This document shows, one piece after another, positions 10,305 to 24,687 of a stretch of 64,000 nucleotides of DNA. A model generated the notes under the pieces. It ran no database searches and was not told the DNA's origin. It worked only from the letters and a program-made list of their open reading frames with translations. Each line of letters begins with the position of its first letter. Position 1 is the first letter of the stretch. The position numbers and the translations under genes are program-made. This stretch comes from Haliotis rufescens (Eukaryota): positions 62,001-126,000 of the forward strand of contig NW_025963804.1 in the NCBI RefSeq assembly GCF_023055435.1, written 5' to 3'.

Positions 10305-10462
10305 TTTGGTCCGGTATTGATAAAAGACGAGTTGATCATCCCTAATGTGACCCGGCATTGATAAAATTCGGGTGGATCATCCTTAATGTGACCCGGTGTT
10401 GATAAAAGTAGGGTGGATCATCCTGTATTGGCCCGATGTTGATATAAGTCGGGTGGGTCATC
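10305..10462. repeat. ~41-42-bp minisatellite that received the Maverick insertion
   Basis: Units like GTGACCCGG..TTGATAAAAGTCGGGTGGATCATCC; uninterrupted copy at ~42610-42790. Confidence 0.75.
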
Positions 10463-10972
10463 AGTAGTAACCTGCATCGGTAGTGGACCACCAGGATTTC
10501 TGGGACCGCTCAGATTTCTGGGACCAAGATGGCGGCACATCCGTTTCCGGTCACGTGACCTGCGCAGTGCATGATGGGTACCTGCGCGCGCATGCAAGAT
10601 GGCGTCGCATCCGTTTCCGGTGGCGCGCGCATGCAAGATGGCGTCGCATCCGTGTCCGGTGGCGTACGCATGGAAAGAGGGCGTCGCTTCCGTTTCCGGG
10701 GAGGAGGAGGAGGGATAGGGGGAAAACCCGGAGAAGCGCCCGTACGAGGGGAACAAGATCGACAGGGTTGTTGTTCTTGTGTTGTTCTAAAAATAGAAAT
10801 AGACGTGGGGTGGTGGTGGGGGTGGTGAAGGGAGGGAGGGAGGGAGGGAGGGAGGGAGGGGAGAAGGGGTGGGTTCACGGTGTCGTGTAGGGTGGGGGGG
10901 TGGGAGGGTCGTCAAAGCAAAGGAGGAAAAGCTGTCTTTCGGGAGAGATGGGTGGCCCTGAAAAGGGCCGTT
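10463..10972 (+). repeat. Left terminal inverted repeat of the Maverick
   Basis: Reverse complement of 21987-22497 apart from a few differences, mostly in the G-rich tract. Confidence 0.95.
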
Positions 10973-10974
10973 TT
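10934..10974 (-). terminator. Histone-type 3' end signal (stem-loop 10954-10969 plus HDE-like)
   Basis: Minus strand reads AAAAC GGCCCTTTTCAGGGCC ACCCA TCTCTCCCG AAAGAC. Confidence 0.85.
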
Positions 10975-10979
10975 GATGT

Positions 10980-11336
10980 TTACATGGTTGTGCATCCCAT
11001 GGTACAAAGGCACGGGTGGACTTTCATCTGTCTCCTCACAGGACACCTACTGGTGTGTGTTAACCGCCTCACGTAGGTGTCCTTGAGGATGGTCTTACAG
11101 TACACACATTCGAAAGTCCCATCCCGTACCCTTGTACCAAGGGCATAGACGGGCAGGCCCCCTTGACATCGGCCACATTGCCACGCTGGAGACCATGGGG
11201 GTAGTGGGGCTGGTGGTGATGTTTCTTTCCACCCAGGCAAAGGTTGTGCCACTGTGGTGATCTCTAAATCCCAGTTTTCTTTCAGGGGGTAGTTGTTGCC
11301 GGTGTTGTTGTTGTTGTTGTTGCTGCTACTCATCAT
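10980..11336 (-). CDS. Small zinc-ribbon protein (CxxC...CxxC), Maverick accessory gene
   Basis: 118-aa ORF with WQCGRC and FECVYC; TATA/Inr cassette directly upstream and histone-type stem-loop 10 nt after the stop. Confidence 0.65.
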   Translation of the reverse strand: MMSSSNNNNNNTGNNYPLKENWDLEITTVAQPLPGWKETSPPAPLPPWSPAWQCGRCQGGLPVYALGTRVRDGTFECVYCKTILKDTYVRRLTHTSRCPVRRQMKVHPCLCTMGCTTM

Positions 11337-11364
11337 GATGCTTTCTTTTCAATCAATTTTTACA

Positions 11365-11660
11365 AGTGACACTGACCCACTCGAATCCACGCTTGTTTTA
11401 TAGGAGAGACACTGACACCCTGCCTCCCGGTTGGTTCGCCAGGCCGCAGCTCCGATTGGCTCGTTCCGGGGCCCGGCCCGCACCTCGGTTTTCCAAAACG
11501 GACCGACCCCTGTGTTTCTTTTCCATAGGAAATGGATTTTACCATGGGAGAGAAAGCACAACCCCGGTTCGACCAATCAGAGCCCCGCCTGGTCCGAGCG
11601 CCGCTTCTGATTGGTCGACCACCCAGGCTTCGGATTGGTCCGATTTCGATCCGTTTTTTT
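11365..11660 (-). promoter_or_regulatory. Repeated CCAAT/TATA/Inr promoter cassette, copy 1
   Basis: Several CCAATC boxes; TATAAAA (11402-11396) 29 nt before the A of TCAGT (11373); points at the zinc-ribbon ORF. Confidence 0.8.
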
Positions 11661-12314
11661 TTCTTCTTTGGTAGCCTTGGTATTTTTTGAGGTAGACGGT
11701 CGTCTGAATGGTAAAGGAAGGTGGACCTTCATAGGTAGACATGAACGTGGGAATGCCTACGCGATGTACGTGGTGACACCCCCATGCCAATCGGAATGTC
11801 ATGTGTGCGTGTGTGTGTGTGTATGTCTTCAAACAGACGTTGACGTTGATGCATAGAATAACGTGTGGTCAGTCAAAACGTGGTGTCCTGTGTGTGTGTA
11901 TCGAGTCGTGTCGTAGTGAGATGAATAGAGAAAGATCGATACACCTACGTGACGTTTGCACACGTCATGGACTTCGTGTCGCGATGTGAACGTCATGGTT
12001 GTACTTTGTGTGTTGTCATGCAAACGTCGTACCCTGTGCGTGTTTTCAAATTATTATTATTATTATTTAAGGATACCGAGGTGTTGACACTCGTGTAGGT
12101 CGACAGGCGTACTGTGACGCGTGTGTTCATGCACACGTGATGTTTGACGTGGTGTACTACGTGTCTCTATGGATCTATGGATCTAACTCTATTTATATTT
12201 ATTTATATCTATGTATTGTATTTTTAGACGTGTGCCTCCAAGAGGTCTAGGGGGAGGATGTGGGTTCTTTGTTTTGGAGGGGCAGAGGGTTTAGCAAAGC
12301 AAAGGAAGAAAGTT

Positions 12315-12355
12315 GTCTTTTGGGTGAGATGGGTGGCCCTGAAAAGGGCCGTTTT
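12315..12355 (-). terminator. Histone-type 3' end signal (stem-loop 12335-12350 plus HDE-like)
   Basis: Minus strand reads AAAAC GGCCCTTTTCAGGGCC ACCCA TCTCACCCA AAAGAC, ~125 nt after the BIR gene stop. Confidence 0.85.
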
Positions 12356-12475
12356 GGGGGAAGAAAAACTTTTCTGCTGCTGTCCACTTGGGGTTCCAAC
12401 CAAGAAAAGAAAAACATTTGAACGGGAACTTGAACGGGAACTTGAACGGGAACGCAGGACACGGGAAACGTCCTC

Positions 12476-12940
12476 CTAGGCAGCCGGCCGTGCTACGTCA
12501 TTCGTGTACCTCTGTTTCTCTTCGCAGAGATAGTGCAGTTGTAGCTTCTTCTGGTGTTTCACCAGCCCGGTTAGCTTGAGGTAATCGCAGTCTGGGGACC
12601 ACTTGTGATGTGCCGCCCAAGGATCGTCGTGGGGTGCCCATTGTCTCAGCCGCACCCCACATTGGAAACAGCACACCCCATCGGCACCCTGAGTGTAGAC
12701 AAAGCCCGCATGGGCCATCTCTTCAGCAGTCTGATACATTTGCGTGGGCCACGTCTCAAACGAAGCGAGCCTTCTTTCAAAGCGTAGATAATAGTGCGAT
12801 GGTGTTTGACTGAGCAGTGACACCGCCTCCTCGGCATGACTCTTACTCCAGCATTCACGAGGTTCTGCACTATCCATCACCGCATCTTCGCCACGTGTCG
12901 TCGTCGTCGTCGTCGTACCACTCTTCTTTGTTTCAGCCAT
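12476..12940 (-). CDS. Single-BIR inhibitor-of-apoptosis (IAP)-like protein
   Basis: RLASFETWP...MAHAGFVY...VCCFQCG..L.QW..HDDPWAAHHKWSPDC is a canonical BIR fold with Cx2Cx16Hx6C; no RING. Confidence 0.92.
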   Translation of the reverse strand: MAETKKSGTTTTTTTRGEDAVMDSAEPRECWSKSHAEEAVSLLSQTPSHYYLRFERRLASFETWPTQMYQTAEEMAHAGFVYTQGADGVCCFQCGVRLRQWAPHDDPWAAHHKWSPDCDYLKLTGLVKHQKKLQLHYLCEEKQRYTNDVARPAA

Positions 12941-12960
12941 TCTAGATGATTTTATGTAAC

Positions 12961-13255
12961 ATACACTGACCCACTCGAATCCACGCTTGTTTTATAGGGG
13001 AAGAACCGGATCGAAACTCACTGCTTCCTGGTTGGTCCAAAACGCAGCGCACCGATTGGTTCGTTCCGGGGCCTGGTCCGCACCTCGGTTTTCTAAAACG
13101 ACCCGACCCTTGTGTTTCTTTTCCATAGGAAATGGATTTTACCATGGGAGAGAAAGCACAACTCGGTTCGGGTGCTGTCTTCTGATTGGTCGTTGCTGTC
13201 TTCTGATTGGTCGGCCATCCAGGCTTCGGATTGGTCCGATTTCGATCCTGTTTTG
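12961..13255 (-). promoter_or_regulatory. Promoter cassette, copy 2 (between the divergent BIR gene and polB)
   Basis: Same core; TATAAAA (12996-12990) 29 nt before the A of TCAGT (12967). Confidence 0.8.
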
Positions 13256-13329
13256 GGGAAGGGTTGTCCATCCCTCAGACGTTCAGCACCTCTTAGAGTA
13301 CAGACGTTCATCAGATACACATCGCTATA

Positions 13330-16300
13330 ATGACGAGCAACCAAAGTACGCCCTATCGTTTGGAGAGGAAAGATATCACCCGCTCCAGACGGTTAAGAAC
13401 TGCTAATCATACCTATCGTTTGACTTTCAACCCAGACTACTTGGACACCGTACCACCGGAACGCGTCCCCATGGAACTGCCAGCTTTATTTGACAGGGTG
13501 ATCGATGACTTTTATGAACAGATATCAGGTCAGAAGGGAGATCGTATTGGTCTAGGTATCGATCATCCCGCTTTGAACACACCCATACGGATACCCTTTC
13601 GACGTTTTGAAGATCTCCATGGGCTAACTATTTTGCAAGCCGTGGAAAAAGTCCAACAGTCCAACAAAGACCTGAACATCGATGCCACCATGGATGTGAC
13701 CTTAGTACACGTCGCAGATCCCAACAGGGTAGGATCGGGCAGTGGTGCTCCCCGGCTGAAAAACGTGATTGGACTCGAAGCTTTTTTAACACGCAAAAAG
13801 TGCATCGTACGGATCAAGAACGAAGATCAATCCTGTTTGGCACGGGCCCTGGTGGTGGCACAGCATTATGCCCACAAGCCTCACCCTCTGACCCCAGCAT
13901 GGACCGCCCAGCGAAAGAGACTGACGAGAACGGATCGCGTCGACGTTCAAGGCATACGGGCACGGGCCTTGTTTCGAAGCCTTGGCCTGCCCGAAGGACC
14001 CTGTCGGGGTCTGGACGACCTCGCACGCGTGGGACGAACCTTGACCCGTCTGCATTATCAACTGAAAGTCTACAGTCAAGAGGTGGGTCAGAGACTGTTG
14101 TACAAGTGTGATGAGACTCCACCCCACGCCACCGTGCTGCATCTATACCATCATGATCAGCACTACGATGTCATCACTTCCATGCCCGCTTTTTATGGCT
14201 CTAACCATTACTGCGAATGCTGTGACAAACGTTACGACCATCCCGAAAACCATCCCTGCACCAAGGAATACCGCTGTTACCGCTGCTTCTACTCTAGTTA
14301 TTGTGGACCCCAGGAAGAGCACGGGATCCCTTGCTTGACATGTCAAGGTTGGTTCCCCAATCCAACGTGTTACACCCGACATCTCCAGTCACCGTCAGAG
14401 GGAAAACCCAGCGCCTGTCAATCGATTCACAGGTGCCCGAACTGTTTTCAGTTGGTCCGCGTCTTGGAGACCCCCATGGCTCACCACGCGTGCTTCGATG
14501 AAGAACATCCCTGCTTGGTGTGCCGAGAACCCATGACCCCAGATCATCGCTGTTACATGACGCCTCTCGGTGAAGAAAACGAGGAGGAGGAGGGGGAGGA
14601 AGCGGAGAAGGAGGAGGAGGGTGAAGAGGAACAACATCCCCTACGAGACCATGTTCAATACGCCTTCTACGATTTTGAATGCATGCAAGACACGGGGGAA
14701 CACATTCCAAATTTGTGCGTGGTGCAACTAGGATGTGGACGATGCATCAGTGAAGTGAGCAAGAACTTGTGCGAACACTGTCCATGGAGAGAAGAAGGGT
14801 ATGGTCCCAGCCTTGAGATCGTGTTTCGAGGCCCCACCACGCGACATGATGTGTGTGTTTGGTTGACCACGTTGTCTGAAATACCCAAGAAGAAGCCCCA
14901 CCCAGAGGAAGAGGAGGACAGCACACGCAAGGGGACGACAGCTCACCTGGGGAAAAAAAGAAAACGGGATGACACCCCCTCAAGAAAGCACGCTTCCAAA
15001 TGACAGGCATCACCCCAGCAGGAGGGGGAGGAGTTGGGGGAAGAGGGGAAGGAGATGGAAGAGGGGGAAGAGGGGGAAGAGGCCATGGAAGTGGAGAAAA
15101 CAAAGAAGCCAAAGAACAAGAACACCTCCTGTCATACAGTCCCGAAGGAGGATCGCATTTATGTGATGGCCCATAATGCACGATCCTATGATTTACACTT
15201 AGTCCTGAAGGGTCTGTCCCCCCTCCTGGTGACACTCCCCACCAAGATTCGGCATGGCCAACAAATTTTGCAAATGACCCTGGGACGGTTATGTTTCGAA
15301 GACAGCTTAAATTTCATCCCTTACCCCCTGAAAGCCTTTCCCAAGAGCTTTGGGCTGAAAGAAATGAAGAAAGGGTACTTTCCACACTTTTTCAATACGA
15401 GAGTCAACCAGACCTACAGAGGTCCCTATCCACCAGCCGTCACGTACGATCCCGATGGCATGTCTCCCGCGGAACGCACAGCCTTCCTCCAGTGGCATAC
15501 CCAAAAAGTGCAAGAAGGAGCCTTGTTCGACTTACAAGGAGAACTTTTAACCTACTGCCAAAGCGATGTGGACATTTTGAGACGGGGATGCGCCGACTTC
15601 CGACAGAACGCCATCCACTCGGTGGGCATGGATCCCTTTGTGGAAGTGATGACAGCTGCAGCGTTCACCATCAAATCCTTCCGAAAACACGACCTGAAAC
15701 CCAATACCATCGCCATTCTCCCACCTCAAGGCTACCAACCCAAGAGAAACAATTCCCAGGCCTGTATGCACTGGCTCCACTATCTGATGGAAACGGACCC
15801 CCATCTGCACCTCCAGCACGCCAGGAATGGCGGTGAAAAAGAGTTCACGTGTGGAGGGGGTCAACATCGGTACACCGTGGATGGCTACGATCCAGCGACA
15901 GGCACCGTCTACGAATTCCTGGGCTGTTTCTGGCATGGGTGCCAGGCCTGTCACAAGACCCGACGTGGAGAACCGCATCCCGTCCTGGGCTCGTCGTTGG
16001 GAGCCCGTTACACCGACACCCACTACCGCTTGAGTCTCTTGAGTCAACACCCTGAGGTGAAACGGATCGTCACCCTGTGGGAGCACGAGTTTACGAAAAT
16101 GCAACGGGAGGACTCCGCACTGCGTGCTTTCTTGCAGGGACCCCCCTGTATCCACGTCCCCGGGCTGCTCAACCCTCGCGATGCCTTCTATGGAGGATGC
16201 ACCAATGCGACGCGATTATGCTACGAAGCCCAAGAAGGTGAAACCATCAAGTACATCGATATTTGTTCCCTTTATCCCTACATTTGTAAGACCGGAGTGT

Positions 16301-17580
16301 TTCCCACGGGACACCCGACCCTTCTCCATCAACCCCCTGTGGACACGTTGTTTGAACTGAAAGGCCTGATCCAATGCCGTGTCTTACCCCCGAAACGACT
16401 TTACCATCCGCTACTGCCTTACAGATCGGGTGGCAAACTGCTCTGTCCTTTGTGCCGCACGTGTGCCGATACCCGGTCAGACTCCCCCTGCGAGCACACG
16501 GACGAAGAGAGGTCATGGGTGGGGACGTAGGCCACCGTAGAACTCCAGGAAGCCGTGAAGAAGTATGACTACCGGGTGCTTCAGATCTACGACGTTTGGC
16601 ATTTTGACACCTTTGCACAGCATGACCCCGACACCCAGCAAGTGGGACTCTTTGACACTTACATCGATCGACATTTCAAGGAGAAGCTCGAAGCCAGCGG
16701 ATACCCCGAAGGATGTACGGATCACGACGCGTACATCCAGGAGATCTACGACAAAGAAGGCATTGGGTTGGACAAGGACCGCATCGAAAAAAATCCAGGA
16801 CGTCGCACGATTGCCAAGATGCAACTGAATTCGCTCTGGGGCAAGTTTGGGCAACGGGTAGACTACAGTCAGAACGTGTATATGAACGATCCTGTACAGT
16901 ACTTTGCCTTGTGGAGGGATGAACGCAATACCATCGAGGATGTGGTCGTTGTCAACGAACACATGGTGGAAGTGACCTATACCCAGCAGAAAGAATTCCA
17001 AACCCCTCATTCTCATTTCAACGTCGCCATCGCTGCTTGGGTCACTGCCCAAGCACGTCTCAAGCTGTACGAGACCCTTGCCCTGGTGGACCGCAGGGTG
17101 TTGTACTTTGACACGGACAGTGTCATTTACATTCATCGACCCCACGACGCGAATCCAGAGCTGGGTCATTCGTTGGGTGAGTTTACGGATGAACTGGACG
17201 GAAACACCATCGAGACGTTTGTGTCGGGAGGCCCCAAAAACTATGGCTACGAGTTAATGAACCCCAGACCCGATGGAACGCGCACGACCTGCAAAGTGCG
17301 AGGGTTCACTTTGAATTACCGAAACCAACGCCATCTCAACTTTGACACCATGAAAGGACTGATACTGGGACAACGGCCTGGGAAAGAGGAGGAGAAAATC
17401 AGTTTGGATTACCCTCATCAGATCATTCGAAAAGGCCCTCGGCACGAAAACGCACTCGTGACCCGACCCACCCGAAAAGACTATCGTACCGTGTACGACA
17501 AGCGACGTCTCGTCTACGACGACATCACAGGGCTACCTGTAGACACGCTCCCCTTTGGGTACAGAGACGACTTTCACTAA
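13330..17580 (+). pseudogene. polB: Protein-primed family B DNA polymerase (Maverick pPolB) with two in-frame nonsense codons
   Basis: ORFs 13330-15003, 15034-16530 and 16555-17580 are all in one frame, separated by TGA (15001) and TAG (16528). Motifs: OTU-like (IKNEDQSCLARA...HYDVI), Cys-rich region, ExoI YDFE, ExoII HNARSYD, ExoIII YCQSDV, VSR-like insert (VDGYD..VYEFLGCFWHGC), PolA DICSLYP, PolB KMQLNSLWGKFGQ, PolC YFDTDS, GPKNY, KVRGF. Confidence 0.95.
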
Positions 17581-17629
17581 AATTTTTCATGACAGCGGAT
17601 CGAAACTGAATCGACATGGACCCCTACAG

Positions 17630-17890
17630 AAAAAAACGGATCGAAATCGGACCAATCCGAAGCCTGGATGATCGACCAATCAGAGGCCGCGCTCGGGCCA
17701 GGGTGGCCTCTGATTGGTCGAACCGAGGTTGTGCTTTCTCTCTCACGCTACAAGCCTAACCCTATGGAAAAGAAACACAAGGGTCAGTCCAGTTTGGAAA
17801 ACCAAGGTGAAAGTCAGGCCCCGGAACGGGCCAATCAGAAAGCAGGACCTCCGTGGCTTTTAATACGACCGACGCTCTCCGGTCATCACT
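17630..17890 (+). promoter_or_regulatory. Promoter cassette, copy 3 (diverged)
   Basis: GGATCGAAATCGGACCAATCCGAAGCC...CCTATGGAAAAGAAACACA; TATA degenerate; upstream of the 18083 gene. Confidence 0.7.
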
Positions 17891-18082
17891 TTTCACTGAA
17901 CGGACCAAGCAACAACATCGTCCCCTCTGATTGATGTTCCTCACGTTGTGTTGGTTGTTGGCGTTTTATCTGGAAGAAACGCGTGTTTGGAGAGAGTACC
18001 ATCAAGTGTTGACGTACCTCCGTGAAGACTTGGAAAGAAACAACAACAACAACAACAACGAACAGAACATCCGGACAACATC

Positions 18083-19310
18083 ATGTCGAACAACATGTCG
18101 AAACGGTTGAATGACAAGACACGAAGCGACATGAGTGGCCAAGGAAGCAGTGGAGATGGGAACGGTAACATGACTGCTGAACTGTGGGGTGAAGTGTACG
18201 ACTTGCTGTGTTTAAAGATGAAGACCGACGACGCGTACGCCAAGTTACGTGCGAAGGGCGACAACCTGATGTGCGACCAGATACGTTCAAAGATGAGGAA
18301 GCTGACTGAACCCGAGAAAGGCACATCCAAGAAGACGATCAAGAAGATCCAGAAGAAAAAGACACGCAAACCCACAGCCGTGGTGACCCCCACAGCAACG
18401 GCAACACCCCCCACCCCACCCCCACCCCCACAGCGCCAGTCCCCACCACCACCACCACCACCACCACCACAGCAGCCACAGCAACCACGACTGTGGCGAC
18501 AACAGACATCGACACGAGGGGGACATCCTTTTTGAAACCTGCCACACCTGCAACGCCTGCAAAAAGACGATCACGGAAGAAATTATCTCTGAAGATCTCT
18601 CCTCAAGAACAACTGTAAGTACCCTGCTCTTCTTTGTCTCAGTCATTCTTGATGTGATTCATATGCATGACCTATGCCTATCCTAAATGGACTCTGTCCT
18701 TATGATTGACAGGACCCCTGATGTCAGTTCAGCCCAGTCCGTGCTAGAACAGTGGTGGGAATAAACCCCTCGGGAGCCCACCTATTCACCGAATGCCCCT
18801 GTGACGATGGCGACGGGTGACCTCGATGATCATGAAGCGCTCAAGATGGCCACTCTCCCTTCCATGGATCTGGACACGCTTCCCCTGCTCGAGGCTTCTT
18901 GGTCACCAGCATCCCCGGAAGAGGTTCATGTCTACTCCTCAGGTACGCCCATGGTTTGCGACGATGATGATGATGACAACGTTGACCTGGATCCTTATGG
19001 AGAAGCTCAACTCACTCCCCTACAACGCGAATGTCGTGTTTGCCGACACAACAACATGTTAAGATACATCAGTTGCAACAGCGGGCAAGTGATGTGTCAT
19101 GCCTGTGAGCTGGAGCTCATAGACTGTACTTGTAGTATGTTGACCTATGACAGCATAGTGACACATGATGACATGCCTATCGCATCTGAGGATCACATCT
19201 TATGGTGATCCTCCTCTTCACTCGAAGAACTTTGTCAACACGCCAGCTGCAACCGTGATCAAGTGATGTGTCATGTCTGTTTCAGGGAGGCCATAGACTG
19301 TACGTGTTGA
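18083..19310 (+). pseudogene. Decayed spliced Maverick gene: basic/low-complexity N-terminus, acidic tract, duplicated Cys module
   Basis: Candidate GT-AG intron 18615-18712 joins a KRRSRKK frame to the 18801 frame. This needs one frameshift in the C/CCA tract (~18410-18470). In-frame stops at TAA 18762 and TGA 19206; the SCNxxQVMCHxC..xIDCTC module occurs twice; AATAAA at 19701. Confidence 0.5.
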
Positions 19311-19628
19311 ACGGTTGGGCCTCTCACAGGTTTGAGGGAGGACCACCTCTTAGGGACTTGAAGATGGAAGAGCTTGAAGATGGAAGAGGAAAACGTTGTC
19401 GCGTTATTGTTGTTGTTGTTGTTGTTGTTGTTGTAGGGACATGCAAAGCACTCCCTCCTCCATTGACTTTTCGTATTTCCATTGTATCGGGTTGTGATTG
19501 GTTTTTTCATGATTAAACAGTGATTGATTGAACTGACTCTTTGTGTCTTGATTGATCTCAACTCCAAAAGAGTGCCGAACCGAGGGTAGAGGTTGAGTTG
19601 AGATGTCGTTGACGTCGTCTGTCTGTCC

Positions 19629-19666
<38 letters not shown>

Positions 19667-19890
19667 GCCTCTGTCATGTCAGTGCACACCAAAGTGAAGA
19701 AATAAAATTAAAAATAGATAAAAGAGAAAGGCCATGCTTGAAAGATCAGCTGCCTGGTGTCAGTCATTCCAGGACGCATCGATCCCCCCTACACCCCTCC
19801 CCGTGTGCCATGTCATGTCATGTCATGGATCATGTCATGGATCATGCCGTGTGTCCGTCAACCCAAACACAGGATGACGTCACGTGATGA

Positions 19891-20128
19891 GGTGTAGGAG
19901 ATGGAGAGTTTCATAAAAGCTAAAGTCATGACCTTCCGTTGAAGGGTGTAGGGTGGAGAGTTTCATAAAAGCTAAAGTCATGACCTTCCGTTGAAGGGTG
20001 TAGGGTGGAGAGTTTCATAAAAGCTAAAGTCATGACCTTCCGTTGAAGGGTGTAGGGTGGAGAGTTTCATAAAAGCTAAAGTCATGACCTTCCGTTGAAG
20101 GGTGTAGGGTGGAGAGTTTCATAAAAGC
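19891..20128 (+). repeat. 52-bp tandem repeat (~4.5 units) upstream of the second BIR gene
   Basis: CATAAAAG recurs at 19912, 19964, 20016, 20068 and 20120. Confidence 0.95.
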
Positions 20129-20170
20129 AGGCGAACCCTCAGACCTTCTTTCAGTGAAGTCACCGTCATC

Positions 20171-20695
20171 ATGGAGCAAAGACGTTCTATGAATGCCATG
20201 TCATCCTCCCGAGATGTCGTCACCGATTCCGAGTGGGTGTCTGAAAAGGCGAGAGAACAAGAAGCGAGAAAACGTTCACTCTTGATGGACGACACACTCT
20301 TGATTGACGACAGGTGTCGACACGGTGACGTTCTGGAGAGACCTTTTCCTTCCTTGTGTCAACCTTCTCATCCCCACTATGATTCATTTCAAGAACGTCT
20401 GAGGTCTTTTAAAACGTGGCCTCAACAGATGACCAAGACCCCTTATGACATGGCCATGGCTGGCTATTTCTATCCAGGACGAGGGGACTGTGTGACCTGT
20501 TATTGCTGCGGTGTGGCACTCCGCCAATGGGAAGCCACAGACCAACCCTGGAAAGAACATCTGAAGCATGCCAAAGTCCCCTGCGAATACTTGTGTGTGT
20601 TTTGTCCTGATGGAGAAGTGAACGAAAAATACAGACGTTTGGTGTCCCAAGAAGCACGGAAACGAAGAGTCGAGTGTCTTGTTCACCCCAAGTGA
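20171..20695 (+). CDS. Second single-BIR IAP-like protein
   Basis: ERLRSFKTWP...MAMAGYFY...VTCYCCG..L.QWEATDQPWKEHLKHAKVPC; no RING; ATTAAA at 20838. Confidence 0.92.
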   Translation: MEQRRSMNAMSSSRDVVTDSEWVSEKAREQEARKRSLLMDDTLLIDDRCRHGDVLERPFPSLCQPSHPHYDSFQERLRSFKTWPQQMTKTPYDMAMAGYFYPGRGDCVTCYCCGVALRQWEATDQPWKEHLKHAKVPCEYLCVFCPDGEVNEKYRRLVSQEARKRRVECLVHPK

Positions 20696-20929
20696 CAACG
20701 TTTCTTTTTTTTTTTCAAAGTGGTCAGACGTTCCTACCCTCGCGGTCACCCCTCCCTCGTGTTCACAAAAATCACAGGGATGTCCCCCCTCATCCTGTGA
20801 CTTTTGTTTTGTGGTGTTGGTTCATGTGATCAGGGGGATTAAATTTTTTGTTAAAAACTCATAGTCGTGTTATGTTGTCTGTAGGATGAAGAAAAAACAA
20901 AACAGGATCGAAATGCACATCCCGATAAA

Positions 20930-21195
20930 AAACCGGATCGAAATCGGACCAATCCGAAGCCTGGGTGGTCGACCAATCAGAAGCGGCGCTCGGACCAGGC
21001 GGGGCTCTGATTGGCCGAACCGGGGTTGTGCTTTCTCTCCCATGGTAAAATCCATTTCCTATGGAAAAGAAACACAGGGGTCGGTCCGTTTTGGAAAACC
21101 GAGGTGCAGGCCAGGCCCCGGAACGAACCAATCGGGGGCGCTGCCTGGGGAACCAATCAGGAAGCAGGGTGTCAGTGTCTCTCCTATAAAAACAA
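20930..21195 (+). promoter_or_regulatory. Promoter cassette, copy 4
   Basis: Near-identical inverse of copy 1, ending CCTATAAAA ~45 nt before the CCHC ATG. Confidence 0.8.
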
Positions 21196-21230
21196 AACAA
21201 GAGCGAAGCCACTCACACACACTGCATTCT

Positions 21231-21869
21231 ATGAAACCCATCATGTCAGCTCGATACAGTTGTAGGATGTGCCAGACCGACAGTCACAGTTACCTGTACT
21301 GCCCTGAAGTGACATGTACCGAGTGCCACACTCAAGGTCACCGTCACTATGTCTGTCCGAAGCTGAACAGTCAAGAGAAGCAGGAGAAGCAGGAGAAGCA
21401 GTACCAGGGCCCCTGTTACAACTGTGAAGCCCTGGGTCATTTCGCTGCAGATTGCCCAGAACCCCGTCGAAAGAAGACTCCCCATCGCCTGGACCGCTGT
21501 TACAACTGTGGAGCCCTGGGTCATTTCGCTGCAGATTGCCCAGAACCCAGTCGAAAGAAAACGTTAGCAACACCGTCCACGTCGACACCCGTGGCATCCG
21601 TGGCAACCGTGACCCCCGTGGCCCCCGTGACACCCGTGACACCCGTGGCACAAGTGCTTCATCTCATCGAAGACATGCATTCCGATGTCCTCGACCTAAA
21701 AGAATGTCTCACACAACTCCGGGTAGGCATCACACCTCGTCTAGAGAAAAGAAAACGGAACAGGTCCCCCTCACGAAAACACGTTTCAAAGCGCCGACGA
21801 CACCTTCCGTCCGAGGATGAGATGGAAGTAGAGGATGGAGAAGTGAGATCCTCTGAACAAAGTGACTAA
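21231..21869 (+). CDS. 4x CCHC zinc-knuckle protein with NLS and C-terminal EDGEV motif
   Basis: Four Cx2Cx4Hx4C knuckles, KRKRNRSPSRKHVSKRRR, then EMEVEDGEVRSS. Start placed at the first ATG after the TATA (~21185), not at the track start 20886. Confidence 0.85.
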   Translation: MKPIMSARYSCRMCQTDSHSYLYCPEVTCTECHTQGHRHYVCPKLNSQEKQEKQEKQYQGPCYNCEALGHFAADCPEPRRKKTPHRLDRCYNCGALGHFAADCPEPSRKKTLATPSTSTPVASVATVTPVAPVTPVTPVAQVLHLIEDMHSDVLDLKECLTQLRVGITPRLEKRKRNRSPSRKHVSKRRRHLPSEDEMEVEDGEVRSSEQSD

Positions 21870-21947
21870 CGCATGGGTCATGCTGCCCCACTGTTTTTAC
21901 CCGTTTCCCATCGTTTGCAGTTTTTCCAGTGTTCCAGTGTTCCTGCC

Positions 21948-21978
<31 letters not shown>

Positions 21979-21984
21979 TGTTTT

Positions 21985-22025
21985 CCAACGGCCCTTTTCA
22001 GGGCCACCCATCTCTCCCGAAAGAC
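21985..22025 (+). terminator. Histone-type 3' end signal (stem-loop 21990-22005 plus HDE-like)
   Basis: CCAAC GGCCCTTTTCAGGGCC ACCCA TCTCTCCCG AAAGAC, ~120 nt after the CCHC gene stop. Confidence 0.85.
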
Positions 22026-22497
22026 AGCTTTTCCTCCTTTGCTTTGACGACCCTCCCACCCCCCACCCCCCACCACACCGTGAACCCACCCCTTCTCCCC
22101 TCTCCCTCCCTCCCTCCCTCCCTCCCTCCCTTCACCACCCCCACCACCACCCCACGTCTATTTCTATTTTTAGAACAACACAAGAACAACAACCCTGTCG
22201 ATCTTGTTCCCCTCGTACGGGCGCTTCTCCGGGTTTTCCCCCTATCCCTCCTCCTCCTCCCCGGAAACGGAAGCGACGCCCTCTTTCCATGCGTACGCCA
22301 CCGGACACGGATGCGACGCCATCTTGCACGCGCGCGCCACCGGAAACGGATGCGACGCCATCTTGCATGCGCGCGCAGGTACCCATCATGCACTGCGCAG
22401 GTCACGTGACCGGAAACGGATGTGCCGCCATCTTGGTCCCAGAAATCTGAGCGGTCCCAGAAATCCTGGTGGTCCACTACCGATGCAGGTTACTACT
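21987..22497 (-). repeat. Right terminal inverted repeat of the Maverick
   Basis: Reverse complement of 10463-10972. Confidence 0.95.
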
Positions 22498-23891
22498 GTC
22501 ATCCTTTATTTGACTCATTGTTGATAAATGTTAGCAAAGGATTACACAAACAGAATACACCAAACATGCTTTATATTCATTCATTCAAGTGTACATGCAT
22601 ATTTACAGGTCAACAGATAAACCAGTTTCACACCGGTGACCATCAGCTGACTGTCTTGTCACCTTTCACAATTAAACTGTAATGACCGCCCTGGCTCCGC
22701 TCGTCCATCTCACATCGCTAATGTGGTTCCCTCGAGTGTCGTATCTACACAAAGACATGGAGACTTCCTTTAAGTTCCCAGTGAATAGTCGCGCGTGTGA
22801 TATACAGCGCCACACCAGCTAGGGAGGGTTATATCTCTTCCCTGGTCACCTAGCACCCCCGGGACACGGTTCGCGGCGCCTCAGACGACTGGGCCACCCG
22901 TGCCCCCTGTCACAGATGACCAACTGTTGACATCGGTATATGTTATCGCGCATCCACATACCACGTAAGCAGAGTGTCAGGTGTTATTCTATCCCGGTGT
23001 CTGACGTATGCCAACTGTCTGTCTTGATGTTGTGCAACAAAACACCCGTCTCTTATAGCCATGCCCTGTACTGTTGTATATGACTCTGCTGAAATTCGAG
23101 AAGAATGTCTCGTGATAAGGTGGGCGTGGTAACTCGTTTTTCTACGTTTACCAGTCACATAATCTGATTTCGTCATTGCCAAGATAAGCTGTATGTGTTA
23201 CATAATATATGGTGTAGTCTTCCCATTTAAAACATACTGTTTGCTGCATTTCTTAATGACGTCATAATCCCATCGCTGTTTTCTGAAAAATGTAAACAGG
23301 CATATAAATTTATTCTATATTTATTAGGGATTAATAGGTGTCTCAATGATTCAGAGTTGCGTCCCTTAGGCATGAGAGGCAACGATGATCGTGGGTTTAT
23401 CACAGCCAAATCCGTGCTCCGTGGTAAAAATCTTGACCAGTATTATTTCAGTATTTCACTACATGAAGCCTTTTCGTTTTGTTTGTTTGTTTGTTGTTTA
23501 ACGCCCCACTCGGCAATATTCCAGCTATATGACGGCGGTCTGTAAATAATCGAGTCTGGACGTGACAATCCAGTGATCGATTTCATGAGCATCTTTCCAC
23601 GCAATTGGGATGCGATGACATACATCAACCAAGTCAGTGAGCCTGACCACCCGATCACGTTAGTCGTCTCATGATATATGTATACTGTAATGTATACAGT
23701 TCAAAGTCTACAGTCTACTGTATACAGTTAAACATCTCACTCCCCCATTTATGTATCATATAAACTAATAAGAAATGTAAATGTTTTCCGAGAAACTGTC
23801 ACATACACGTATATATTACTGTGAGGAGCCAACAACGTGTCAGCTCTTTTCTACATATCCGCCATCGTGCTGCTGTTGTCTGCTGTCCATG

Positions 23892-24687
23892 ATGTCTGAC
23901 CGACGCTATGGCTACTTCCGCTGCCCTAAGTGTAACGCCCACTGGGAGAGTTCCCATGTTTACTGCCACGGTTTCAAGGTAGGTTGTTGGTGGTTATAGC
24001 GTCTCTCTTTCAGACCCCTGAATATATATTTACTGATAAAATATTCACCCAACCCGTCCAGACCCTTCTCAGATCCAGCACCCTATAGATCCCTTTTCAG
24101 ATATGAAATTCAGAAATATGGTTCCTTTATAGACTTGTTTTTATTTAACCCCATACAGGACAGGGGCTTTTTTTTAATCTAGCGGTTGGAGTTAGTCACT
24201 GCTGGGGTAGCCCAGTACTTAATGTGTCCGGTCGTTCGACTCCCTGCACTGCTCATGGGTTTAAAGTCTGGGTAAATTAACATATCGTTTCAACAAAATC
24301 AGTTAATAGTAGTTGCGATTGTATCTTAGACATTTATCAAAATAAGATGCCATGTGTTGATATTTCTAAATGATACACGGAATTTCGGATATATGAAAAT
24401 AACTAAGGGTGTGTGATAAACTGTTTGTGACAGTGAAGGAAAGTGCATGTGTACATGGAGTATATCTTTATGTGTTATCTCTACAGGCTGTGTACGAACA
24501 GGACTGCAAGTCGTGTAAAATAGGCTGCCTCCCATATCGGGCAGAGAAGATGATCTGTTCCGTGTGCGGTAGTAAAGATTGCACATGCACCAGTGAAGAC
24601 CGGAAAAATAGGAATATTGATCTCAACAAACCTCACAGGTCTGACCTGTGTCACAAGTGCAGGTCTGGGAGACCGTGCATATACTGA
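23892..24687 (+). CDS. ZAR1-like zinc-finger protein, type A copy 2
   Basis: Exons 23892-23978 and 24487-24687; intact. Confidence 0.88.

Follow-up and report, generated by a model that had tools for sequence, protein, structure and literature searches.

Mavericks, also known as Polintons, polintoviruses or, in animals, 'adintoviruses', carry the end motif AGTAGT//ACTACT (or AG/CT) (PMC8097293). They are treated as single, self-sufficient elements, and surveys detect them by PolB plus integrase, or by five genes, within 20 kb (PMC11414722, 10.1101/2023.08.22.554363). Because such surveys demand clustered genes, they would overlook a split family or put its copies down as debris. Here we describe a family from the abalone Haliotis rufescens that is probably bipartite, with a PolB half (class A) and an integrase-virion half (class B) that likely complement each other in trans. 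The family came to light in a 64,000-nucleotide stretch of the forward strand, referred to here as the window (RefSeq assembly GCF_023055435.1, contig NW_025963804.1, positions 62,001 to 126,000), in which one class A element has inserted.

The window element proper spans 10463-22497 (12,035 bp), starts with AGTAGT and ends with ACTACT, matching the Maverick motif. Its terminal inverted repeats (TIRs; left, 10463-10972, plus strand; right, 21987-22497, minus strand) differ by 4 substitutions over 509 aligned columns. The 6-bp target site duplication (TSD) GTCATC lies directly outside at 10457-10462 and 22498-22503, the left copy within a 41-bp host minisatellite that the insertion interrupts cleanly. 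Complete ends and a 6-bp TSD had been read from the letters alone in the original prediction, and both were borne out; its interval of 10457-22503 takes in the two GTCATC copies. The prediction had also found no open reading frame (ORF) for an integrase, capsid protein, packaging ATPase or protease. When the element was searched by tblastn (E<=1) with nine proteins of its partner class, noise aside, we recovered only a vestige of the ATPase start, about its first 20 codons (summed E 0.006), and conclude that these genes are truly absent. Of the features of an autonomous Maverick, the element thus has the end motif, the 6-bp TSD and PolB; integrase, packaging ATPase, major and minor capsid and protease are missing from the same molecule.

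PolB of this class would prime on a fused terminal protein. In the window element, the protein-primed-type family B polymerase occupies 1,416 codons of one frame (13330-17580, plus strand; PF03175), with exonuclease and polymerase motifs. Two in-frame stops, at 15001-15003 and 16528-16530, were overlooked in the original prediction and prevent this copy from encoding the full protein, whereas at several sister loci the PolB frame is open over about 1,280-1,460 codons.

We searched the genome with the TIR and scored 40 of 341 candidates. Paired ends were mostly 10-12.6 kb apart. Ten pairs were fetched, and seven of these were collinear with the window element over most of their length at ~87-98% identity, although one of them has lost 4 kb and another has gained 3 kb; the 12-kb layout is therefore present in many copies. 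A search with the PolB C terminus (150 of 298 candidates scored) gave lower bounds of at least 126 PolB loci and at least 104 at 70% or more identity, which we count as the family. A second PolB-only layout, A2, is about 9 kb long with TIRs of about 1.9 kb and accounted for 7 of 20 further young loci; it carries a 395-aa Ala-rich ORF that matches no Pfam family. Its PolB interleaves in the tree with that of the window layout (A1), which suggests recombination. A2 was read at L089-L103 and L124-L130 (for example, G000:C157:7788924-7799165). At L012 (6375 onward) and L025 (8389 onward), elements have landed next to, or within, family members that were already there.

The remaining three TIR pairs had their ends alone in common with the window element; two belonged to class B and one to a gene-free class C. 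Class B reads, from left to right, TIR, ATPase, two ORFs, integrase with chromodomain, small membrane-type ORF, putative minor capsid, basic ORF, major capsid, protease and TIR, without PolB, and measures 10.35 kb in an uninterrupted copy. Pfam identified a Pox_A32 ATPase and an rve integrase with chromodomain, and gave a weak match for the protease (E 0.05), in which the motifs are present, as catalytic motifs are in class B proteins. The major capsid was predicted with a pLDDT of 90 as a double jelly roll, and a fold search with this model returned the double jelly rolls of Sputnik (a virophage), an iridovirus and PBCV-1 (a chlorovirus) at E 7e-17. From its position and likeness, and with no Pfam match, we take one further protein to be the putative minor capsid. 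F54H12.2-like is the name of the Polinton capsid. Sequence searches added little: in PDB the capsid profile found no match and the protease one that was not significant, IMG/VR held no relative of the capsid that we could find, a genome search with PF21738 was silent even in its controls and so carries no information, and atlas look-ups with the 321-aa ORF of class B returned no match. With 95 of 317 candidates scored, the capsid search gave lower bounds of at least 71 loci, at least 53 of them family members at 70% or more identity. The original prediction had taken the window element for a non-autonomous lineage or one segment of a bipartite element, and had looked for support to many identical 12-kb layouts, or to another class that has this TIR and encodes integrase and capsid but lacks PolB. 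Both were found, and that interpretation is strengthened.

Class C is a palindromic 12-kb element with its own TSD and the newest TIR subtype, related to the long ends of A2; one copy was read (L017/L018, G000:C179:251860-263940). Having kept no essential gene, it falls in the category of non-autonomous (satellite) Mavericks and is likely a full parasite of the A/B system. Class A does not fall in that category: it lacks integrase, yet its PolB is under purifying selection.

The ends of the classes have evolved together. The left TIR is common to classes A, B and C, and identical 6-bp TSDs flank 25 of the 28 elements with both ends read. The exceptions are two B copies that match at 5 of 6 positions and one A copy with mismatched TSDs and mismatched ends, as would fit a recombinant of two insertions. 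A and B interleave in the TIR tree, where the newest B groups with nine A1 copies and the C copy (support 100/99), and a single B clade was rejected (p-AU 5e-41, one internally deleted B end left out). Across two hypervariable blocks, the newest B end differs from an A end at 1 of 34 bases. Shared termini that change in step are what a bipartite virus would have. Divergence between 5' and 3' TIRs is 0-3.6% in A1 (median 0.7, n=12), 0.2-1.7% in A2 (n=5) and 0.8-5.9% in B (median 2.4, n=9), so that the range of B overlaps that of A. The hypervariable blocks lie at TIR positions 10-12 and 19-22 (window 10472-10484), with a pairwise diversity of 0.45-0.68 in 12 young elements against 0-0.17 at neighbouring positions. 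They are identical at both ends of one insertion, and there are 26 distinct first 26-mers among 28 elements; an arms race over origin or integrase recognition may be at work.

In young copies the two gene sets are apart. We took B-gene loci at >=90% identity and looked for a family PolB hit within 20 kb. None was found for 30 capsid, 28 integrase or 34 ATPase loci; the integrase search scored 99 of 2,175 candidates and the ATPase search 150 of 523, and the PolB, capsid, integrase and ATPase lists each ran down into unrelated families. As a control, 7 of 18 distant capsid loci have an adjoining PolB; these are ordinary whole Mavericks of the genome. Direct reading of loci from the top of the hit lists, not taken at random, gave the same picture: apart from the window element, 32 young PolB loci were read, 23 of them to either side, and none had any of nine B genes; none of 15 class B loci had PolB. 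Two places with a young PolB and older B genes 18-19 kb off (C446 and C290) were considered as joined copies and rejected, being separate TIR-bounded insertions. These partly scored searches found no whole young helper of the same family in this assembly. Between them, A and B hold all Maverick core genes, and none is duplicated in young copies; as in a bipartite virus, the gene sets are complementary and non-redundant.

Both halves bear the marks of selection. Pairwise dN/dS was 0.14-0.40 for PolB (21 copies), 0.20-0.43 for capsid (14) and 0.23-0.58 for integrase (11), and 0.7-2.3 in wrong-frame controls. We then contrasted changes shared between copies with private ones. Shared changes were mostly synonymous and private changes mostly not (non-synonymous to synonymous, PolB 34:58 against 143:63, p 2e-7; capsid 12:36 against 99:49, p 6e-7; integrase 7:10 against 76:30, p 0.02). 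It follows that each half was copied from functional templates while it was without the genes of the other half.

From what is known of Maverick biology, in part from PMC8097293, the two halves would work as follows. The PolB of A would copy any molecule with AGTAGT ends, and the integrase of B would insert A, B and gene-free C molecules and make the TSD. Virion proteins of B would package A or B molecules, and the BIR proteins of A would block apoptosis, so that the producing cell survives. Since the germline carries the two halves, no cell lacks either of them, and the co-infection cost of a split genome would vanish.

Older loci, chosen for low identity or co-location, give an outline of how the split may have come about. 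Six carry a layout that we call A', with PolB, small ORFs, ATPase and the second BIR gene (BIR2). Six join PolB to integrase or virion genes, one of which counts also as A'; these joined loci are old, with 84-90% DNA identity in the B part and mostly 73-83% in PolB. The PolB tree, with 50 rows and two distant whole elements as its root, unites the 30 PolB-only rows in a single clade (100/100); below it runs a ladder of nine relic rows (ATPase- or virion-linked) and nine unplaced old rows. In the ATPase tree, the ATPases of B are grouped above the relic ATPases (91/98), and ATPases up to 94-95% identical are still common to A'-type and B copies.

The window element itself bears scars of the lost ATPase gene. 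Bases 19710-19778 (plus strand) match the ATPase leader, which stands directly 5' of the packaging ATPase in class B, at 61 of 68 positions (alignment score 96, shuffle maximum 28), and 20112-20184 (plus) match the trailer 3' of the ATPase stop in class B at 60 of 73. A 52-bp tandem repeat (19850-20161, plus) sits at the site of the ATPase gene in older copies. BIR2, a 174-aa IAP-like ORF (20171-20695, plus; E 2e-20), is followed by a 200-bp segment (20705-20910, plus) that is 79-80% identical to sequence 3' of the protease gene in class B. From the two scars and this segment, BIR2 stands at the former site of the integrase-capsid-protease block. The likely history would begin with a whole element alongside the derivative A', in which a BIR gene had replaced that block and the ATPase was kept. 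A PolB-less derivative, B, would then have arisen, joined forms would have ceased inserting, and A' would later have lost its ATPase. Further loci (L148/L149, L147, L151 and L153) contain ATPase-BIR2 junctions with no PolB in the flank read; one junction starts at a TIR remnant, so PolB-less A' derivatives may also have spread.

Other abalone species were compared through protein clusters, with 15 of 18 members listed for one main cluster and 15 of 16 for the other; here accession order serves only as a stand-in for gene order. The Haliotis asinina capsid is 72-74% identical to that of B and sister to it in the capsid tree (99/98). Within H. asinina, 11 of 18 listed capsid accessions lie within four numbers of a PolB-cluster accession, as against 1 of 12 near one in Haliotis cracherodii (p 0.007), which suggests, as far as accession numbers can tell, an undivided element in the former and a split one in the latter. 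Two H. asinina proteins (XP_067649080 and XP_067660619) are caspase-2-like, 151 aa long, and clustered and numbered with the PolB of the relative, a hint of a caspase-like cargo gene.

Several points weigh against a bipartite family. The evidence comes from one assembly of one animal, and only part of the candidates was scored in each genome search. B insertions are older on average, which speaks somewhat against an equal partnership today, and the newest TIR subtype is found in only one of nine B copies. The contrast of shared and private changes gave p 0.17 for the protease and 0.36 for the minor capsid. Every relic 'whole' copy has suffered deletion or rearrangement, and because these copies are interspersed with A' in the tree, they may be A'-B recombinants at the shared ATPase and not ancestors; the deepest relics are already A', without integrase and capsid genes. 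In the capsid tree H. asinina is the sister of B, but in the PolB tree it does not come out as the sister of A, so that an earlier polymerase swap is possible. One H. cracherodii pair with consecutive accessions (capsid 96% identical to B, PolB 88% to A) may be a joined copy. In the chief alternative, A and B are both satellites that depend on an intact helper, a whole member of their own family missing from this assembly, whether a polymorphic insertion, a collapsed repeat or a circulating virus, with A and B genes selected through the extra dose they supply. A single assembly with partly scored searches leaves room for such a helper, and the six old joined loci, the H. cracherodii pair and the closely similar ATPases of A'-type and B copies speak for it. 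Such a helper, sharing their ends, should however have left insertions of its own. No young joined copy was met among the capsid, integrase and ATPase loci at >=90% identity, although that period saw dozens of A and B insertions; all joined loci are old, and in H. cracherodii 11 of the 12 capsid accessions stand well apart from those of PolB. We therefore consider a hidden helper unlikely.

Help might also come from outside the family, with A and B mutually independent and each borrowing its missing functions from unrelated whole Mavericks, either those at 45-55% protein identity or a high-copy family. Whole elements do exist in the genome, some with long open frames and AGTAGT ends, which counts against the bipartite reading as well. 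Their TIRs do not match the A/B TIR and differ beyond the terminal hexamer, and the TIR variants of A and B track each other; we judge such borrowing quite improbable. A unique internal deletion, by which a full-length Maverick would have turned into the window copy after insertion, was the outcome named in advance as fatal to the original prediction. The broken PolB of this copy would fit it, but the same 12-kb layout stands at many loci, each with a separate TSD, and the idea can be regarded as already refuted, with next to no chance of being right. A bipartite family thus remains the probable explanation. The fuller claim, that a linear double-stranded DNA, double-jelly-roll virus became truly multipartite in an animal germline, with separately packaged and inserted polymerase and integrase-virion segments, gene-free cheats, a stepwise fossil record of the split and a related abalone that still has the undivided form, falls a little short of probable, and we offer it tentatively.

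The high-copy family was encountered when loci from a PF04665 search were considered as the partner. What this search returned was mostly an unrelated high-copy whole Maverick family; ten of its loci were read, and none was the partner. An example is L038/L039 (G000:C279, about 4652767-4666348), alongside at least 140 other ATPase hits; the family has a 216-aa ATPase, a 424-aa ORF, a 1,225-aa PolB, a 316-aa integrase and a 224-bp TIR. A 393-aa integrase and a ~520-aa ATPase-bearing frame also occur as inverted pairs about 5 kb apart, at G000:C1:34856285-34862385, C13:17947369-17953762 and C113:5641497-5648535, and are possibly palindromic elements.

The remaining genes of the window element are small. 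A Pfam scan of its nine ORFs identified DNA_pol_B_2 (in two PolB pieces), two BIR domains and zf-CCHC, and left four ORFs without any family; the nearest named proteins are from abalone (Haliotis). A 118-aa Cys-rich ORF (10980-11336, minus) is under purifying selection (dN/dS 0.20-0.35, 8 copies), and an atlas look-up gave a weak zf-BED-like lead only. BIR1, also IAP-like, encodes 154 aa (12476-12940, minus; PF00653, E 7e-23). Two small ORFs of 150 and 133 aa (18083-19208, plus) occur even in the relics of greatest age; from GT...AG signals near 18596-18712, they are possibly one spliced Cys-rich gene. The zinc-knuckle (CCHC) ORF (21231-21869, plus), 212 aa from an ATG 3' of a TATA box, is weakly constrained (dN/dS 0.56-0.94, 8 more divergent copies). 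A promoter-like module of CCAAT boxes followed by TATAAAA, to judge by its motifs, occurs four times in the element, before small genes: at 11369-11663 (minus), facing the 118-aa ORF; in the interval between BIR1 and PolB (12945-13260, minus); 3' of PolB (17603-17870, plus); and at 20924-21191 (plus), with a homologue inverted at the class B left end. Outside the element, a host ORF fragment at 23781-23999 carries a YGYFRC...CNAHW motif and is presumably 3CxxC zinc-finger-like.

The abalone family shares with described Mavericks the end motif, TIRs of some hundred bases and the 6-bp TSD (PMC8097293, PMC8502044), IAP homologues as accessory genes (PMC8502044) and, when A and B are taken together, PolB, ATPase, integrase, minor and major capsid and protease. 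It differs in that these core genes, elsewhere carried by a single molecule of ~17 kb, are divided between two that insert independently and measure 9-12 kb and 10.3 kb. Vertebrate Mavericks are described as PolB-ATPase-PZ and integrase-capsid-protease modules; the abalone break lies instead between PolB and the rest. Polintons of Pieris mannii likewise include amplified copies without polB, whose mobilisation the authors left open, but that genome keeps highly similar complete polintons with polB, and the accessible text describes no complementary PolB-only partner (10.1101/2025.02.07.637071). We found no bipartite or segmented Maverick in the literature covered; Repbase, supplements and most subscription papers lay outside it and may list some. 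Gene-poor non-autonomous Polintons are present in Repbase. A split family alters what 'defective' Maverick copies may mean.

Complementary defective genomes as fossils in a host genome are known from bipartite endogenous florendoviruses (PMC4241990) and mutually complementing pararetroviruses (PMC5491270), which also share homogenised non-coding sequence and for which a helper was not fully excluded either. Those are plant reverse-transcribing viruses without their own integrase, whereas A and B are animal, protein-primed linear double-stranded DNA elements with TSDs and dated intermediates. Bidnaviruses have single-stranded DNA and parvovirus-like capsids, and we know of no integration by them or by Drosophila Vesanto virus. 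Both have segmented genomes whose segments match each other at the termini, one of them encoding a polinton-type PolB (PMC8502044, PMC8363768); A and B differ in their double-jelly-roll capsid, A32 ATPase, protease and retroviral-type integrase.

Genome splitting in viruses is a long-standing question. In a model of cheat-driven multipartitism, complementary 'partial cheats' replace whole genomes, with gene-free 'full cheats' alongside, and phylogenies with known transitions are asked for (PMC10159356). A, B and C fit these roles, and the relic series is consistent with this theory. With whole relatives, intermediates, both halves and parasites in one genome, datable ends and a seemingly undivided congener, sequence alone is enough to test in which order genes were lost and whether termini co-evolved, and the A/B family offers a case with dates on which to examine whether cheats drive genomes to split.

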